Shown: positions 41,377-46,045 of the stretch, piece after piece
Numbering within the stretch: position 1 is the first letter of the stretch
Layout: each line of letters starts with the position of its first letter
Source: Escherichia phage ST2
Reading direction: 5' to 3' (one strand)
Length of the DNA: 64,000 nucleotides
Sequence record: OM982647
The notes under the pieces: generated by a model
What the model saw: only the letters and a program-made list of their open reading frames with translations
Databases searched by the model: none
What the model was told of the DNA's origin: nothing
Made by a program: the position numbers and the translations under genes

Positions 41377-42009
41377 TCACAGTACGTTAGTTACAAGGGT
41401 AATGATTTCTTTGGACACATTAGGGAAGTCAATGTAAGTATATTTACCACCGATCTTAATCTTAACATCATTTTCAAGAGAAGTAAACAGCTTTGATTCA
41501 GTTTCTGACATGTTGTATGCAAAGATTCTAAGAGAACCATCTCGACGAATTTCGATCTGACGAATACCTAGAACTCGTTTTGCAAATCGAACTTCTAAGT
41601 TACTACGGTTTTCGCCAATTTCTTTAACTTCAACTTTATCTTTAATATTTTCAAAAACAAAGTTTGCTAATTCATGCATTTCAGGAGTAACTCCACGTGC
41701 TTTTCTAGTGTTACGTTTCTGAAGAAGTTCTGGAGCATTTTCTTGGGCAAAGAGGTCTGCAGCTTTTTGGATAATATCCATTGCTTCGCCTGTTGCTACA
41801 AGTCCATCACCGGATTTTTCGACTAAACCTTTCTTAATCAATACACCAATGTTAGAGTTAACAACCGATGCATTGTATTCCGCTTCTAGAGCTTCACGGA
41901 CATTGGCAGCAGTGGTGAAGTTGTTCTTAATGATATAAACCATTATTGCAGCAGTTTTTTCATTCAGAGCGTTTTCAGAAGCTTTGATGATGTAAGTAAC
42001 TTTAGACAT
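41377..42009 (-). CDS. motA: Middle-transcription activator
   Basis: 210 aa (T4 211); MSKVTYIIKAS...NIGVLIKKGLVEKSGDGL as T4 MotA. Confidence 0.85.
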   Translation of the reverse strand: MSKVTYIIKASENALNEKTAAIMVYIIKNNFTTAANVREALEAEYNASVVNSNIGVLIKKGLVEKSGDGLVATGEAMDIIQKAADLFAQENAPELLQKRNTRKARGVTPEMHELANFVFENIKDKVEVKEIGENRSNLEVRFAKRVLGIRQIEIRRDGSLRIFAYNMSETESKLFTSLENDVKIKIGGKYTYIDFPNVSKEIITLVTNVL

Positions 42010-42066
42010 TTTATTTCTCCAAATTAGTATTTGTTTTGATAGGTCTATAATATCATGTTTGAAGCA
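42001..42066 (-). repeat. Promoter-leader module copy A (66 bp identical to 42320..42385)
   Basis: Exact 66-bp direct repeat spanning start codon, SD and early promoter -10. Confidence 0.8.
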
Positions 42067-42076
42067 AAAGTAAACT
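42045..42076 (-). promoter_or_regulatory. T4-type early promoter for motA
   Basis: GTTTAC, 17-nt spacer, TATTAT. Confidence 0.5.
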
Positions 42077-42112
42077 TTATTTTGGGCTCTTTTTCAAAAG
42101 CCCTGGTAAAAT

Positions 42113-42328
42113 TTACAAACTCATTTCTTTAATAAGGCTAATAAGTTTTGCCTTTTTAGAACGAAGCTTTTCTAAATGATGACCATTCGAACCGCGAACC
42201 ACTAAAGAATTGATTTCAACTTCTAAGAAATTTAATTCTTCAACAAGTGCTTTACGGAGAGCATTCATACCAGGTTTGACTTTACCGAAACGAGTAGTTG
42301 TGTTTTGGGTTAATTTCATTTTAGACAT
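42113..42328 (-). CDS. Hypothetical basic protein, 71 aa (start trimmed to ATG)
   Basis: ATG at 42328 with same leader as motA; track start runs through promoter. Confidence 0.45.
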   Translation of the reverse strand: MSKMKLTQNTTTRFGKVKPGMNALRKALVEELNFLEVEINSLVVRGSNGHHLEKLRSKKAKLISLIKEMSL

Positions 42329-42385
42329 TTTATTTCTCCAAATTAGTATTTGTTTTGATAGGTCTATAATATCATGTTTGAAGCA
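42320..42385 (-). repeat. Promoter-leader module copy B
   Basis: Exact 66-bp direct repeat of 42001..42066. Confidence 0.8.
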
Positions 42386-42420
42386 CATGTAAACTGTTTT
42401 GTGAGAAAAAATGCACAAAA

Positions 42421-42436
42421 GGGAGCCGAAGCTCCC
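42421..42436 (-). terminator. UUCG-tetraloop intrinsic terminator
   Basis: GGGAGC-CGAA-GCTCCC then U-run. Confidence 0.55.
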
Positions 42437-42512
42437 TAATCATGTTTGTCCAACCAATACAGCCAAATCACTAGTGCAGCTATTGCACCGAGAAATCCTA
42501 AGGCTAGGGCAC

Positions 42513-43838
42513 TCAAAGTGCCTCCAAGTCTTTAGTGTACTCTGTCACAACATCAGTAGACTTCCAATACTCATTTTCTTCTTTCTTAGCTTTAGCTTCT
42601 TCTGCTAGTTTACGTGCTTCGTCGGAAGTGATATGGAAGATGTTAAGACCTACCAGTTTATCGACATGTTCTTTATACATTTCGATTTGTGCTAGCTCTT
42701 CAGTCAAAGCTTTACGAGTCTTGCCCTGAATCACAATTTCGCCACTGATAACTTTTTTGATGAAGTGTGCCTTAGCAAAAGCAAGTTTAAATGCTTTTTC
42801 AGATTCAAGGATTTTGTTATCAATACGTTTCTGAACGTAAGTCTTACGGACTTCAACAAAATCTTTGATTAAGTCCACTACGTTATCGTAGACCGCTAAT
42901 TTACCCTTTTCATTAATCACTGTGATGTTTTGTGAACGACGTTCGATGAGACTAAAATCTTTCATGATTTTTTCATGACGTAGCTCTTCATCATCAGGAA
43001 GCGAGTACTCTTTACGGAACTTCACCTTAAACCCAAAGCCATGTTCACCACAATCATCTTCCCATGAGATTAGACCTTTGTCTTCCAACGGGTCAAGAAC
43101 CTTACTCACATACGTTTCACGGTCGAATTTATATGGGATTTCAGTTATCTGCATTTGAGTGCGAGATGTGAACTTATATGTTCCGTGAATCTCATAACGC
43201 CCATCAACTTCATGTACTTCACCACGGAATTCTGGGAATTCAACTTTTGGCTTAGTGACATTTTTACCTTGAAGAGCTTGTAATACGGCCTTTTTGACTG
43301 ATTTAAAACTATGAGGCAGAATATTTGTTGCGTAACCGGTTGCAATACCAGAGACGCCATTCAAAAGAACTGTCGGAATAATAGGAAGATAGAATTTTGG
43401 TGGAATATGTTCTTTATCTTCATGAGCTGGAGCATATTCAGTATCTTTATATACGTTATAGAAATTTTTACTTACACGAGCAAAAATATAACGAGATGCT
43501 GCAGCTTTTTGGACTGTTCGAGAACCAAAGTTGCCTTGGCCATCTAACAGTGGATAGTTGTTGTTCCATGTGTTAGCCATCAATGCACCTGCATCTTGTG
43601 CAGAAGATTCACCATGGTGATAACCTAAATCTGCAACACCTCCTGCAATTGACGCAAGTTTATGAAATTTTTCTTTATTACCACGAGCCAAATCTAACGC
43701 ACGATGAACCACAAAACGTTGAACCGGCTTAAATCCATCAATCATGTTTGGGATTGCACGGTTTTCAACGGTGTACATCGCATATGCTAAGGCTTCGTTA
43801 TCAATAATACTTTTTAGATTACGAGAATTCAATTGCAT
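42513..43838 (-). CDS. 52: DNA topoisomerase II medium subunit (GyrA-like)
   Basis: 441 aa (T4 442); MQLNSRNLKSIIDNEALAYAMYTVENRAIPNMIDGFKPVQRF... Confidence 0.95.
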   Translation of the reverse strand: MQLNSRNLKSIIDNEALAYAMYTVENRAIPNMIDGFKPVQRFVVHRALDLARGNKEKFHKLASIAGGVADLGYHHGESSAQDAGALMANTWNNNYPLLDGQGNFGSRTVQKAAASRYIFARVSKNFYNVYKDTEYAPAHEDKEHIPPKFYLPIIPTVLLNGVSGIATGYATNILPHSFKSVKKAVLQALQGKNVTKPKVEFPEFRGEVHEVDGRYEIHGTYKFTSRTQMQITEIPYKFDRETYVSKVLDPLEDKGLISWEDDCGEHGFGFKVKFRKEYSLPDDEELRHEKIMKDFSLIERRSQNITVINEKGKLAVYDNVVDLIKDFVEVRKTYVQKRIDNKILESEKAFKLAFAKAHFIKKVISGEIVIQGKTRKALTEELAQIEMYKEHVDKLVGLNIFHITSDEARKLAEEAKAKKEENEYWKSTDVVTEYTKDLEAL

Positions 43839-43842
43839 ATTT

Positions 43843-43983
43843 TCACCATATTAATGAACGAATAACCATTATAACATCTGAAATGAAAAGCACTACTTGG
43901 ATTAGTCCAAACATCACACCGTAGTACAGAACCGTAAGCAACAACAAGAGCCCGAAGGCTCCTGCTAAGATTTTCTTAATCAT
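43843..43983 (-). CDS. Small hydrophobic membrane protein, 46 aa (not in ORF track)
   Basis: ATG overlaps upstream stop (TAATG); single predicted TM. Confidence 0.4.
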   Translation of the reverse strand: MIKKILAGAFGLLLLLTVLYYGVMFGLIQVVLFISDVIMVIRSLIW

Positions 43984-44129
43984 TACTCGCCTTTTAACAC
44001 GTTAACAAGAGCTAAGACCGCTAAGGTGCCTTGTGATACGGCCTGTTGAAATACCGTTGTTTCGCCTGTAACTAAAGTGCTAACGAATAAAAACGACCAA
44101 CACAGCAATGCAATAATCCATGCCACCAT
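43983..44129 (-). CDS. Small hydrophobic membrane protein, 48 aa (not in ORF track)
   Basis: ATG with SD GAGGTAATTAAA; single predicted TM. Confidence 0.45.
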   Translation of the reverse strand: MVAWIIALLCWSFLFVSTLVTGETTVFQQAVSQGTLAVLALVNVLKGE

Positions 44130-44181
44130 TTTAATTACCTCAAAAATAAATTAAAGGCCCAACTTAATAGGCCCGTATAAA

Positions 44182-44628
44182 TTAGTAACTCTGCAGAATG
44201 AATTTGAAATTATCTGCCAGAAGACGGTTCATTTCAGTGAGTGTTTGATATTCTGATGTATGGTTGCGAGTGAATGCCAGAGCCAATTGTCCTTTACCAT
44301 AACCAGTAGTCAGTGGTTTCATGTTCTTAGCTGCAACAAAGATTACATCATATTCAATATTGTTAGTGCCCATAGTGCGAGCTAGTTGCGAACGGCCTTG
44401 ACGAATGTGAGAAAGAATTGCATCCAACCCTTGTTTAGAACGTTGACGTCCTACAAAGAATCGTGCTGCTACTTGTCGCCAATCAGATGAACCTTTAACA
44501 AAGAAGTAAAAACCTTCACGAGAACGAAACTCTTTAGAAACTTCAGAACCGTATTCGCCATTGCGAACTACTGCAACAACTTCACCGCCAACTGCCAGAA
44601 GGTCTTTACGAGTTAAATATTTAGACAT
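44182..44628 (-). CDS. ndd: Nucleoid disruption protein
   Basis: 148 aa; ...[25 protein letters not shown]...[20 protein letters not shown]...[12 protein letters not shown] as T4 Ndd. Confidence 0.85.
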
Positions 44629-44666
44629 GCTAATTTCCTCAATTGATTAATGTTTTTGTAATCCAT

Positions 44667-44700
44667 GAGAGCATTATACTCTGCTCTCAAGAGTTTGTAC
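44667..44700 (-). promoter_or_regulatory. Early promoter for ndd; near-identical to module at 16343..16379
   Basis: GAGAGCATTATACTCTGCTCTC palindrome around TATAAT, -35 GTACAA variant. Confidence 0.45.
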
Positions 44701-44704
44701 AATT

Positions 44705-44905
44705 TTATTCGGTCATATCAGAACGTTCAAAAAGCTCTTCAACGGTTAAACATTCGGTGTCATCCTCAATAAAGAATCGGGTCCAACACGTTGGGGCGAT
44801 GCAGTTATGAGTTTGTCCGGCTATAGAAGCTACACGAATAAGCTGCTGACCATTATTCAGGACAAATTTTTCACCAATTTCAACATCTTTAAAAAGCTTA
44901 GCCAT
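44705..44905 (-). CDS. Hypothetical protein
   Basis: 66-aa ORF, SD GAGGAACACAAA. Confidence 0.45.
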   Translation of the reverse strand: MAKLFKDVEIGEKFVLNNGQQLIRVASIAGQTHNCIAPTCWTRFFIEDDTECLTVEELFERSDMTE

Positions 44906-44965
44906 TTTGTGTTCCTCATATTTTGATAGGACTACTATACCATAATCCTACCTTGATGTAAACAA

Positions 44966-45076
44966 TTAAATTACATTAAAATATGTTAAAGCCAACCATG
45001 TTCCAGTGAACGAACATGCGATGTAAAAACCCGTATCACAAATTGTTCTTAGTACAATAAGAAGTGCATTTTTCAT
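44966..45076 (-). CDS. Small hydrophobic peptide, 36 aa (not in ORF track)
   Basis: ATGA-coupled to upstream peptide; hydrophobic. Confidence 0.3.
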   Translation of the reverse strand: MKNALLIVLRTICDTGFYIACSFTGTWLALTYFNVI

Positions 45077-45159
45077 AAGTACCTCAATACAATTGAAAAT
45101 ATTATACAAATCATAGGGATACTAAGCAACCATATTCCGATCCACATTTTAGAGCTCAT
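45073..45159 (-). CDS. Small hydrophobic peptide, 28 aa (not in ORF track)
   Basis: ATG overlaps stop of 45156..45419 ORF (ATGA). Confidence 0.3.
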   Translation of the reverse strand: MSSKMWIGIWLLSIPMICIIFSIVLRYL

Positions 45160-45419
45160 ATCTCAACTTCCGCGAGTTCCATATATCCTTTGTTGATAAC
45201 CTCTTTAAGGTCTTTAGAAAGAATGACATTAAAATGGTCGTTCATATGTCCATTAACTAAACGAGTTATTTCGGCTTCAGATGACATATAAGGCACGTCT
45301 GAGTCCCAATGAGATAGACCTAAATGGGTATAAATCATCCCTTCGTCGTCTGCAGTGTTGTACATTGAAACAAATTCGCCTGTTACTTTATGTTTTGCGT
45401 AGAAAAATTTAAATTTCAT
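45156..45419 (-). CDS. Hypothetical protein
   Basis: 87-aa ORF, SD GAGGATAACATC. Confidence 0.45.
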   Translation of the reverse strand: MKFKFFYAKHKVTGEFVSMYNTADDEGMIYTHLGLSHWDSDVPYMSSEAEITRLVNGHMNDHFNVILSKDLKEVINKGYMELAEVEI

Positions 45420-45438
45420 GATGTTATCCTCTTTTAGA

Positions 45439-45478
45439 TAGGACTACTATATCATAGTCCTACTTAGTTGTAAACACT
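45439..45478 (-). promoter_or_regulatory. Early promoter with 8-bp palindrome TAGGACTA/TAGTCCTA flanking -10
   Basis: GTTTACA, 17-nt spacer, TATAGT. Confidence 0.5.
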
Positions 45479-45487
45479 TTTATGAAA

Positions 45488-46045
45488 TTAAAGATGAAGA
45501 TACCACCCGTTGTAGTTGCTCTTGCGGACGATTTTCTTTAGGTCTTCATGGTCTCCCACGAACTTTATAGAATAGGAGAAGACGTCAGGTGAGGTTTCTT
45601 TGACATCTAATATAATAATGCAATCTGCGACTCGATGGTTCAAGAAGGGCCCTATATTGATTCCATTACCACCAGGATAATCACCACTGTATCCTGTGGT
45701 AACCGAAATCCATTTAGAATCTATCTGGTGCGTCTTGACTTCGACACGCAACCCGCAATATTTAGGATGAGCTAACACGTCCCATGCATACGTGTACGGG
45801 TCTTCGACGTCTTCAATACCTTTATTAACATATCCGTCTAGCCAATTTGCTACTACATACTCTGCAAAGACTGCAACCTTACAACGTCGAACAACGTCTT
45901 CTTTTATTTGACCTGGATCTTGTTTCAACGAATACCGAGCAGTATCAGCGATCTTAACCTTCATTTCGCTAGTCAAAAACTCATTCGACAGGATAAATGT
46001 CGGAAGACTCTTCAGCCTCAACAGTCCCAAGTTCGTCTTTACCAT
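45488..46045 (-). CDS. denB: Endonuclease IV-like (start uncertain; 185 aa from internal ATG)
   Basis: Position between ndd and rIIB and length 185 aa as T4 DenB; track start 46096 overlaps upstream ORF. Confidence 0.45.
   Translation of the reverse strand: MVKTNLGLLRLKSLPTFILSNEFLTSEMKVKIADTARYSLKQDPGQIKEDVVRRCKVAVFAEYVVANWLDGYVNKGIEDVEDPYTYAWDVLAHPKYCGLRVEVKTHQIDSKWISVTTGYSGDYPGGNGINIGPFLNHRVADCIIILDVKETSPDVFSYSIKFVGDHEDLKKIVRKSNYNGWYLHL

Follow-up and report, generated by a model that had tools for sequence, protein, structure and literature searches.

The analysed window is a 64,000-nt stretch of the genome of Escherichia phage ST2 (OM982647), an RB69/HX01-like relative of T4 belonging to Mosigvirus, and in the region described here the identity to Mosigvirus records is about 98%. 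In the direction of transcription (minus strand, right to left), the locus consists of denB, an 87-aa ORF, an orthologue of ndd.6, a 36-aa ORF, ndd.1, ndd, the orthologues of ac and 52.1, gene 52, a 26-aa ORF and a terminator. The T4 map has the same order, with motA.1, 52, 52.1, ac, stp, ndd and ndd.1 to ndd.6. A preliminary description of this DNA had placed five small hydrophobic ORFs with tight overlaps here, and a mechanical ORF list bears this out for all five, each lying on the minus strand at the coordinates given below. The start and stop codons overlap by 1 or 4 nt: TAATG joins the 48-aa and the 46-aa ORF, ATGA joins the 87-aa to the 28-aa ORF as well as the 28-aa to the 36-aa ORF, and TTGA joins gene 52 to the 26-aa ORF, with GGAGG located 4 nt upstream. 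The GRAVY values are 1.86 (46 aa), 1.27 (48 aa), 1.61 (28 aa), 1.19 (26 aa) and 1.07 (36 aa). Together with the overlaps and the T4 map order, these values agree with the earlier view of small membrane-type genes that are translationally coupled and syntenic with small genes of T4.

The 46-aa ORF (43843..43983, minus strand, ATG start) is the orthologue of 52.1. The peptide matches the Pfam family DUF7396 with 79.9 bits (cut-off 27), residues 1-46 aligning with model positions 1-46, and PHROG 3595 with E = 1e-22. It is made up of two hydrophobic segments with a conserved YYG turn between them. The identity to T4 gp52.1 is 72%, and both peptides share the length of 46 aa, the site directly upstream of gene 52 and an identical 20-residue core (YYGVMFGLIQVVLFISDVIM), the differences being confined to the N-terminal hydrophobic segment. 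The length is the same in Mosigvirus, T4, WG01, TH41 and KP179, i.e. in five genera, between which pS amounts to 0.66-0.75 and pN to 0.19-0.27. By tblastn, 52.1 was found in 727 phage records. Four nucleotides separate the end of the ORF from the start of gene 52 on the same strand, an arrangement that is common to T4, WG01, TH41, KP179 and Merlin. The overlap of the 52.1 start with the ac stop comprises 1 nt (TAATG) in ST2, in contrast to 8 nt in T4. The near-invariant core makes 52.1 the best candidate for follow-up work among the peptides.

The 48-aa ORF (43983..44129, minus strand, ATG start) is located between ndd and 52.1, overlaps the start of the latter and is assigned to ac by tblastn, synteny and the Ac annotation in RB69 and HX01. 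In tblastn searches, the peptide matched Tequatrovirus genes annotated as ac with E = 1e-8 to 5e-6 and, in a small local database, T4 itself with E = 9e-6. It contains an N-terminal membrane helix, a polar TGETTVFQQAVSQG segment and a short hydrophobic C-terminal segment. The helix followed by a polar segment is shared with T4 Ac, as is the pattern W...T.....SVF.QA.AQG, and an alignment revealed that W, T(L/I)xTGE(T/S)SV and QG are common to the 48-aa peptide, T4, TH41 and KP179. T4 Ac is encoded at the same site between ndd and 52.1, but it has 51 aa and the direct identity is just about 37%, a distance that is bridged by TH41, KP179 and the RB33/RB51-type Ac of Tequatrovirus. Within Mosigvirus, pS of ac is 0.06-0.20 and pN about 0.02, and 7, 1 and 11 variable sites were counted at the first, second and third codon position, respectively; the ac gene of phage F2 carries an in-frame deletion of one codon. 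The Shine-Dalgarno (SD) sequence of ac is GAGGT (-6.9 kcal/mol).

The ac gene confers acridine sensitivity. In T4 and T2, the only phages for which this is known, its loss yields acriflavine-resistant phage and its expression sensitises the host (bioRxiv 10.1101/2025.06.30.662393). T4 Ac causes the infected cell to accumulate acridines, for which the 2025 preprint proposes a block of AcrAB-TolC efflux (bioRxiv 10.1101/2025.06.30.662393). Among the peptides described here, Ac alone has a known phenotype, which stems from T4, and by analogy the Mosigvirus orthologue is expected to act like its T4 counterpart. A comparison of Ac with the AcrB-binding small protein AcrZ gave no support for a similarity (z = -1.2), this being a weak test. 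The preliminary description had suggested ac/stp-class genes between 52 and ndd; this holds for ac, but stp, which is situated between ac and ndd in T4, is absent from ST2. The 52-nt gap between ac and ndd contains no ORF, and the best match to Stp in a tblastn search of the whole window (E = 0.11) lies away from this gap. At the site that stp occupies in T4, in the stretch from the end of ndd to the beginning of ac, the terminator scan detected a weak terminator-like hairpin (44155..44174, minus strand) with a fold energy of -11.1 kcal/mol and a z-score of just -1.4.

The 28-aa ORF (45073..45159, minus strand, ATG start) is the orthologue of ndd.6, as deduced from its match to PHROG 8851 (E = 4e-11) and from the alignment with T4 Ndd.6. 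Both peptides have 28 aa, are 54% identical over the full length (score 88, z = 12.5 relative to shuffles), share the pattern MSS...W..SIPxIC...R.L and are encoded in the small-gene block between denB and ndd. Comparison of ndd.6 with T4, TH41 and WG01 gave a pS of 0.60-0.87 and a pN of 0.29-0.37. A tblastn search uncovered 758 records, the E values for Tequatrovirus being merely 0.03-0.1 because the peptide is so short. The 87-aa gene (45156-45419, minus strand), which is located upstream and ATGA-coupled to ndd.6, has a homologue in WG01_269 (z = 24.5), which is also trailed by a coupled ndd.6-like ORF. The coupling to the 87-aa gene is found in Dhakavirus and Gaprivervirus as well, whereas T4 lacks this gene and has ndd.6 as the first gene after denB. 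The ndd.6 product is a single hydrophobic helix with a conserved IPxIC motif, and this helix of 19 residues suggests that Ndd.6 is placed in the inner rather than in the outer membrane. The label "outer membrane protein" that ndd.6 carries in databases is an old prediction. This label had prompted the consideration of Ndd.6 as a lipoprotein, which was rejected on inspection by eye, since the isoleucine at position -1 of the conserved IPxIC motif does not suit a lipobox.

The 36-aa ORF (44966..45076, minus strand), which is ATGA-coupled to the ndd.6 orthologue, is a Mosigvirus-specific orphan encoding a moderately hydrophobic peptide. The peptide matches PHROG 18561 (E = 1e-29), and tblastn detected it in Mosigvirus only (152 records). 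The frame is also open as 44966..45109, comprising 47 aa from a TTG, and the 36-aa version uses an internal ATG at 45076 as its start codon; the SD sequence of this ATG is GAGG with -6.9 kcal/mol, compared with +0.7 for the upstream TTG. With a best 19-residue window of 1.56, the peptide is borderline as a membrane helix. T4 ndd.2, ndd.3, ndd.4 and ndd.5 and the small ORFs of WG01 and KP179 were rejected as relatives (all z <= 1.1), and the equal length of the ORF and T4 ndd.2 (36 aa) is a coincidence. The variable sites are distributed as 8, 1 and 7 over the three codon positions, with the second position being depleted (P = 0.014). Four genomes carry an in-frame 3-nt deletion, and the ORF is frameshifted in 2 of the 14 genomes examined (F2 and PECP20), in both cases at a homopolymer run.

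Full-length matches to PHROG families were obtained for four of the five peptides, and DUF7396 in 52.1 was the sole hit above threshold in the Pfam and NCBIfam scans. The SD energies of the ORFs range from -3.6 to -9.3 kcal/mol, compared with a background mean of -1.7 kcal/mol, in keeping with the good SD sequences noted earlier for several of them. It had also been proposed that the ORFs fill otherwise empty gaps. Such coverage is rare by chance, occurring in 10 of 5000 mononucleotide shuffles for the gap between gene 52 and ndd and in 38 of 5000 for the gap between ndd.1 and the 87-aa gene, but the argument does not extend to the 26-aa frame, since a frame behind the gene 52 stop stays open for 26 codons or more in 30% of the mononucleotide shuffles. 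Moreover, variable sites are under-represented at codon position 2 in 16 Mosigvirus genomes (7 of the 72 sites, five ORFs together), and the substitutions show a codon periodicity that is present in the ORF frames and absent from shifted frames. For 52.1, ac and ndd.6, pS lies far above pN. Indels of multiples of 3 nt are seen in ac and in the 36-aa ORF of Mosigvirus genomes, the latter ORF being also frameshifted in two of them. According to the preliminary description, frames that are lost from related phages would speak against genes; no such loss was seen for four of the five ORFs: the frames of 52.1, ac and ndd.6 are kept across genera under purifying selection and that of the 36-aa ORF is kept in Mosigvirus with a constrained codon position 2, while the support for the 26-aa ORF is purely positional. 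As judged from the substitution patterns, purifying selection acts on four of the five ORFs. A search of IMG/VR for related loci with Ndd returned three near-identical loci and added little diversity.

The promoter scan revealed an early-type promoter-like site (TTTACA-17-TATAGT with a TG extension; 44934..44962, minus strand) inside a 60-nt repeat and a second copy at 45446-45474, both with 10 of 12 matches. The two sites are on the coding strand and in intergenic gaps. The direct repeat D2 (44921-44980 and 45433-45492, 82% identical) brackets the cassette of the 87-, 28- and 36-aa ORFs. The hexamers of the D2 sites fit the consensus TTTACW-N17-TAYWAT of the promoter-early stem-loops (PeSLs; PMC4122927), which have been described for RB49/phi1, PST/T4 and nt-1/KVP40, Mosigvirus not being among them (Arbiol 2010; Comeau 2014; PMC4122927). 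As in PeSL cassettes, direct repeats of 60-84 nt flank the block of the 87-, 28- and 36-aa ORFs on the one hand and a 71-aa ORF upstream of motA on the other, and the repeats hold a promoter of the type TTTACA-N16/17-TATAGT or TATTAT. The presence of promoter-like sites, hairpins and PeSL-like repeats might indicate that the gaps consist of non-coding regulatory RNA or DNA elements instead of peptide genes. However, an Rfam scan of positions 42000-45600 gave no match at E <= 1, and the interpretation as a known non-coding RNA was therefore dropped. Furthermore, the promoter and hairpin elements are found between the ORFs and not inside them, the codon periodicity is tied to the ORF frames, and the peptides are conserved across genera even though synonymous sites are near saturation. 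It is thus extremely improbable that the gaps are non-coding, and peptide genes are the preferred explanation.

The 26-aa ORF (42436..42516, minus strand) has a TTG start, overlaps the gene 52 stop (TTGA) and is a hydrophobic positional analogue of T4 motA.1. Its SD sequence GGAGG (-9.3 kcal/mol) belongs to the top 0.2% of background positions and falls within gene 52, in its conserved DLEAL codons. There is a real, if lesser, chance that this frame is no gene, being instead open by chance in the AT-rich DNA of a spacer or 3'-untranslated region and hydrophobic by virtue of T-rich codons; the same would apply with lower likelihood to the 36-aa ORF. A GRAVY of at least 1.0 is reached by 54 of the 462 small ORFs of the window (12%) and, given the frequency of open frames in the shuffles, neither the open frame nor the hydrophobicity of the 26-aa ORF alone exceeds chance. 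The variable sites (4, 2 and 5 at the three codon positions) show no significant depletion (P = 0.23), and the variant codons comprise 5 synonymous and 6 non-synonymous ones. Gene callers almost never predict the ORF, which is annotated only in HX01 among the opened records (YP_010247053.1) and forms a protein cluster with one member. The peptide matches no family in PHROG, Pfam or NCBIfam. A tblastn search of the phage collection yielded just an 11-residue fragment in one record, the low-complexity filter being suspected of masking most of the query; DNA alignments were used instead of tblastn for this ORF, and no sequence homologue of the peptide was found outside Mosigvirus. The frame is without net indel in 59 of 60 sampled records, which is little informative at 97-100% identity, and it is shifted in 2 of 15 genomes, namely in JQD51 and phiEC1.

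Several observations speak against a chance frame. Three of the four frameshifts in the 26- and 36-aa ORFs could be sequencing errors, as those of F2 and PECP20 are located in homopolymers and the phiEC1 record carries the mark UNVERIFIED; the remaining one, that of JQD51, is due to a 5-nt duplication. The strength of the SD sequence also argues for a gene, and hydrophobic micro-ORFs (GRAVY 1.2-2.7) start across the gene 52 stop in seven genera of the Tevenvirinae, which would be unlikely if each of them had arisen by chance. In the case of the 36-aa ORF, the depletion of codon position 2, the in-frame deletion in four genomes and the intact frame in 152 records are evidence for a gene. The 26-aa ORF probably represents an analogue of T4 motA.1 that is decaying or expressed at a low level, and the odds that it is translated are about even.

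T4 MotA.1 (49 aa) and its counterparts in WG01, TH41, KP179, Cronus and Merlin are all hydrophobic, and their starts overlap the gene 52 stop, whereas the Mosigvirus version is shorter (26 aa), begins with TTG instead of ATG and is occasionally frameshifted. No sequence similarity is detectable among the micro-ORF peptides of these genera (z <= 2). Homology of the 26-aa ORF to MotA.1 was rejected (z = 0.4), the site, the stop-codon overlap and the hydrophobicity alone being shared, and homology to Stp was rejected by sequence comparison. The stop codon of the ORF abuts an intrinsic terminator (42414..42437, minus strand) with the stem-loop GGGAGC-UUCG-GCUCCC and a U-run, whose hairpin has a fold energy of -15.6 kcal/mol and a z-score of -4.1, with none of 200 shuffles being as stable. 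As in Mosigvirus, a terminator follows straight after the micro-ORF in T4, Dhakavirus and Gaprivervirus. The stop codon abuts the stem in Mosigvirus, WG01 and TH41, and it is 4 nt away in T4.

The micro-ORF after gene 52 might work mainly in cis: a re-initiating ribosome would reach the foot of the terminator and set the read-through toward motA or the stability of the mRNA 3'-end, with the peptide being of minor importance. This would fit the spacing between stop codon and stem, the embedding of the SD sequence in the DLEAL codons and the fact that the position and the gene 52 stop overlap are kept between genera and the peptide sequence is not. A function of this kind is nevertheless unlikely, because the peptides are strongly hydrophobic and of membrane-helix length in all seven genera, neither of which a purely cis-acting ORF needs. 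Moreover, Cronus (77 aa), Merlin and KP179 have no canonical terminator beside the micro-ORF stop, and an ORF merely filling the space up to the terminator would look identical. Slightly less likely still is that the Tevenvirinae micro-ORF constitutes a conserved regulatory device, in which coupled translation, between the topoisomerase gene and motA, tunes termination or read-through in addition to supplying a membrane peptide. If so, the peptide could change in sequence without restraint provided that its position, its coupling and its hydrophobic character were maintained, and the TTG of Mosigvirus would represent a down-tuned variant.

Taken together, the region most likely (with a probability of about 0.9) contains ordinary members of the dispensable early-gene clusters that encode predicted small membrane peptides in T4-like phages. 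According to the sequence comparisons, the set comprises the copies that this RB69-like phage has of the small early membrane-peptide genes 52.1, ac and ndd.6 of T4, one lineage-specific gene of 36 codons and a doubtful frame of 26 codons. Transcription of the genes would start at PeSL-type early promoters recognised by sigma-70, and each tiny ORF may be translated through re-initiation coupled to its upstream gene. Soon after infection, each peptide would become embedded in the inner membrane of the host by one or two helices. For the peptides other than Ac, an adjustment of the host envelope during the takeover seems the most likely role, though this is a guess. Tiny hydrophobic peptides are poor targets for mass spectrometry. 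In T4, the transcripts of these genes have been classed as early, and proteomics detected no product of motA.1, 52.1, ac or any of ndd.2 to ndd.6 (PMC9697503, Table S2). T4 with the deletion saΔ9, which spans 52.1 to denB inclusive, is viable (PMC6071114).

Nothing described here is new in kind, as the genes have long been known in T4 and are all present in public databases. The ORFs had been taken to be unannotated, which is true solely of the ORF track used at that stage: all five are CDS in the RefSeq record of HX01 (NC_018855), and the exact peptides of all five are present in NCBI. The value of the analysis thus lies in checking annotation, because very small phage genes are annotated inconsistently and a length cut-off in an ORF track hides conserved genes that are under selection. 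For instance, 52.1 and ac are also annotated in RB69 and T4, 52.1 is missing from the annotations of KP179, Merlin, AV110 and mar005P1, and the 28-aa ORF, like the 26-aa ORF, is annotated solely in HX01 among the opened records.

The preliminary description had regarded the small ORFs around gene 52 and ndd as unannotated. However, the exact sequences of all five peptides are already present in NCBI. The NCBI Ac sequence of phage ST2 is identical to the product of the 48-aa ORF (43983-44129), the 36-aa peptide (44966-45076) is carried by 116 contigs, the 28-aa peptide (45073-45159) is annotated in two records and the 26-aa peptide (42436-42516) is annotated only in HX01 (YP_010247053.1). The annotation of small genes is patchy from record to record, which explains the gaps that a length cut-off leaves in an ORF track. 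Since the peptides are already deposited, the observation is a correct reading of known genes and nothing new in kind, and two of the five ORFs are lineage-specific or doubtful.

Over 150 members of the genus Mosigvirus, all Escherichia or Shigella phages and including RB69, HX01, JS09 and PhAPEC2, share 97.5-98.1% identity with the region 42300-45600; T4-type phages are more distant relatives. Every gene of the region is located on the minus strand. According to the ORF list, PHROG matches and annotated relatives, the genes are transcribed in the order denB (45488 onwards), an 87-aa ORF (45156-45419), the 28-aa ORF, the 36-aa ORF, ndd.1 (44705-44905), ndd (44182-44628), the 48-aa ORF, the 46-aa ORF (43843-43983), gene 52 encoding the topoisomerase II medium subunit (42513-43838), the 26-aa ORF with its TTG start, a terminator, a 71-aa ORF (42113-42328) and motA (41377-42009). 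The T4 map reads motA, motA.1, 52, 52.1, ac, stp, ndd, ndd.1, ndd.2, ndd.2a, ndd.3-ndd.6 and denB.

All small ORFs were recovered in the ORF list at the positions originally claimed, and the tight coupling holds at all four junctions, where starts and stops overlap as TAATG (48-aa/46-aa ORFs), ATGA (87-aa/28-aa and 28-aa/36-aa ORFs) or TTGA (gene 52/26-aa ORF). The predicted pairing energies of the SD sequences with the 3' end of the 16S rRNA range from -3.6 to -9.3 kcal/mol against a background mean of -1.7 kcal/mol. The 26-aa ORF has the strongest site (GGAGG, -9.3 kcal/mol, equalled by 0.2% of background positions), followed by the 48-aa and 36-aa ORFs (-6.9 kcal/mol each); the two weakest sites, those of the 46-aa (-4.2 kcal/mol) and 28-aa ORFs (-3.6 kcal/mol), belong to the ORFs that are most tightly coupled to the upstream gene. 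The proposed hydrophobic character applies to four peptides (GRAVY 1.19-1.86, 19-residue windows of 2.3-2.6), whereas the 36-aa peptide is only moderately hydrophobic (GRAVY 1.07, best window 1.56). The ORF coverage of the gap between gene 52 and ndd was equalled in 10 of 5000 shuffles and that of the gap between ndd.1 and the 87-aa ORF in 38 of 5000. In 30% of shuffles, an open frame of 26 codons follows the gene 52 stop, and a GRAVY of at least 1 is reached by 54 of 462 small ORFs across the window. Because of these comparisons, the 46/48 and 28/36 pairs are exceptional from sequence alone and the 26-aa frame is not.

Comparison with the syntenic T4 genes identifies the 46-, 48- and 28-aa ORFs as orthologues of 52.1, ac and ndd.6. 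The 52.1 orthologue shares 72% identity with T4 gp52.1, the core YYGVMFGLIQVVLFISDVIM being the same in both, and Pfam DUF7396 covers it from end to end (79.9 bits, cut-off 27). Matches to 52.1 were found by tblastn in 727 phage records, its length of 46 aa is common to Mosigvirus, Tequatrovirus, Dhakavirus, Gaprivervirus and Jiaodavirus, and across genera pN is low (0.19-0.27) at pS values of 0.66-0.75, at which synonymous sites are near saturation. The ac orthologue is named Ac in the RB69 and HX01 records, matches annotated ac genes of Tequatrovirus (E ~1e-8) and shares W...T(L/I)xTGE(T/S)SV..Q..(A/S)QG with the Ac proteins of T4, TH41 and KP179. Within Mosigvirus, ac has a pS of 0.06-0.20 and a pN of about 0.02, and phage F2 has lost one ac codon in frame. 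The preliminary description had pointed to small T4 genes of the ac/stp class between gene 52 and ndd. T4 Stp is a 26-aa activator of the host anticodon nuclease PrrC. A stp gene is absent here: nothing resembling Stp was found in the 64-kb window, and the gap between ac and ndd (44130-44181) is a 52-nt spacer with only a weak hairpin.

The ndd.6 orthologue has the same length as T4 Ndd.6, with 54% identity (z = 12.5 against shuffles), and comparison with T4, TH41 and WG01 yields pS values of 0.60-0.87 and pN values of 0.29-0.37. In WG01 and TH41, ndd.6 has a TTG start codon and overlaps with the stop codon of a homologue of the 87-aa gene. PHROG 8851 and the RefSeq product name label ndd.6 (45073-45159; T4), whose 28 residues include one hydrophobic helix of 19 residues, as an outer membrane protein, apparently an old prediction that has been carried along. 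A lipobox was considered as well, and the motif IPxIC conserved across genera does not fit it. The 36-aa ORF is a Mosigvirus-specific orphan: it has a PHROG of its own (18561), its tblastn matches are confined to 152 Mosigvirus records and it does not resemble small ORFs of T4, WG01 or KP179.

Selection was assessed in an alignment of 16 Mosigvirus genomes (42380-45440, pairwise identity 97-98%) by counting variable sites at codon positions 1, 2 and 3. Depletion at position 2 was observed for 52.1 (8, 2, 8; P 0.033), ac (7, 1, 11; P 0.005) and the 36-aa ORF (8, 1, 7; P 0.014); the values for ndd.6 (1, 1, 6; P 0.20) and the 26-aa ORF (4, 2, 5; P 0.23) compare with those for gene 52 (13, 5, 103; P below 0.0001) and ndd (5, 5, 34; P 0.0008). 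Strong constraint at position 2, compared with more variable positions 1 and 3, would be expected if selection keeps the hydrophobic character and not the exact sequence. Four genomes (NHEP29, JQD51, ECO111 5-P and PNJ-9) carry a 3-nt deletion in the 36-aa ORF, and frameshifts in it occur in F2 (an additional A within an A-run) and PECP20 (a T lost from a T-run). Frameshifts in the 26-aa ORF are due to a 5-nt duplication in JQD51 and to a 1-nt deletion in phiEC1, whose record is flagged UNVERIFIED. Among 60 records sampled from the 149 matching 42425-42530, 59 lack a net indel, and at 97-100% identity this is little informative on selection.

By its position, the 26-aa ORF is an analogue of T4 motA.1. 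It has no match in PHROG, Pfam or NCBIfam, homology to T4 MotA.1 or Stp was rejected due to the lack of sequence similarity, and its peptide does not resemble those at the same site in WG01, TH41, KP179 or Merlin. Micro-ORFs of 23-77 codons (GRAVY 1.2-2.7) whose start codon overlaps the gene 52 stop occur in T4 (motA.1, 49 aa), WG01 (34 aa), TH41 (32 aa), KP179 (23 aa), Cronus (77 aa, annotated as integral membrane protein), Merlin (46 aa) and every Mosigvirus examined (26 aa). The overlap is ATGA or TTGA, and 10 nt long in Merlin. The SD sequence lies within the conserved DLEAL/DLEEL codons ending gene 52, and a one-base difference in Mosigvirus (CTA TGA to CTT TGA), synonymous in gene 52, turns the ATG into TTG. 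The WG01 and TH41 peptides are similar (z = 11.7); those of T4 and WG01 are not. The micro-ORF stop directly adjoins a strong intrinsic terminator in Mosigvirus, WG01 and TH41 (in ST2, GGGAGC-UUCG-GCUCCC followed by a U-run, fold z = -4.1), and in T4 a hairpin starts 4 nt past the motA.1 stop. No such micro-ORF was seen in Acj9, Aeromonas phage 31, Matisse (Slopekvirus) or a Krischvirus. The Tegunavirus phiR1-RT, with a hydrophobic 24-aa ORF (GRAVY 1.88), is ambiguous because its GTG start lies 7 nt past the gene 52 stop without overlap. The recurrence across genera supports a real feature at this site but falls short of proving translation of the TTG version. The terminator loop (42420-42437) is flipped between the window (GGGAGC TTCG GCTCCC) and RB69 and PECP20 (GGGAGC CGAA GCTCCC) with an unaltered stem, equivalent to a hairpin inversion.

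Several annotation errors were noticed in related phages. The 52.1 homologue is unannotated in KP179 (locus L005, 2610-2747) and Merlin, in which Ac-like and 52.1-like ORFs (locus L022, 622-771 and 768-905) are missing from the annotation and a "terminator" feature lies inside the latter. The TTG-start ndd.6 homologues of WG01 (locus L004, 826-915) and TH41 (locus L006, 565-654) are unannotated too, the TH41 record having no annotation whatsoever. Product names are off by one gene in JQD51 (PV204681.1), where the name nucleoid disruption protein has been given to the ac ORF and DNA topoisomerase to motA. Moreover, Ndd is labelled naphthalene 1,2-dioxygenase in several records and 52.1 acridine resistance protein in many.

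Regarding function, T4 ac mutants are acridine resistant, expression of Ac in E. coli increases acriflavine sensitivity, and a preprint has proposed that Ac enters the membrane and blocks AcrAB-TolC (bioRxiv 10.1101/2025.06.30.662393; cited in PMC13250531). Loss of 52.1, ac, stp, ndd, ndd.1-ndd.6 and denB through the T4 deletion saΔ9 leaves the phage viable, but infection no longer stimulates phosphatidylglycerol synthesis (PMC6071114). In a multi-omics study of T4, the genes motA.1, 52.1, ac, stp and ndd.2-ndd.6 had transcripts of the early class and the corresponding proteins were undetected (PMC9697503, Table S2). Composition, timing and the T4 literature suggest that the peptides other than Ac may be early inner-membrane peptides modifying the host envelope.

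Rfam families do not match the region. Four sigma-70-like sites are located in intergenic gaps on the coding strand, each agreeing with the consensus at 10 of 12 positions: 45474-45446 upstream of the 87-aa ORF and 44962-44934 upstream of ndd.1 (both TTTACA-17-TATAGT with TG), 44701-44673 upstream of ndd (TGTACA-17-TATAAT) and 42393-42366 upstream of the 71-aa ORF (TTTACA-16-TATTAT with TG). The case for promoters depends on this placement because the total number of such sites does not exceed the shuffle expectation (18 versus 14 ± 4). The site upstream of ndd falls in the spacer between ndd.1 and ndd (44629-44704). Conservation of this spacer across the 16 Mosigvirus genomes is unusually high, with 2 variable sites over its 76 nt compared with 0.17-0.21 per nt in the other spacers. 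The first two sites lie within the copies of a 60-nt direct repeat (44921-44980 and 45433-45492, 82% identity) flanking the 87/28/36-aa block, and a palindrome in this repeat (TAGGACTACTATA..TAGTCCTA) spans the -10 region. An 84-nt direct repeat (42001-42084 and 42320-42403, 94% identity) flanks the 71-aa ORF, which is absent from RB69; other relatives carry an ORF of about 330 nt at this place. These repeat-flanked blocks fit the PeSL (promoter-early stem-loop) cassettes of T4-type phages, for which the consensus TTTACW-N17-TAYWAT has been described (PMC4122927), and the 71-aa ORF with its repeats looks like a PeSL-type insertion upstream of motA. Both 84-nt copies contain a promoter-like site, the same SD context tactaatttggagaaataaa and the first codons ATG TCT AAA, which motA and the 71-aa ORF have in common.
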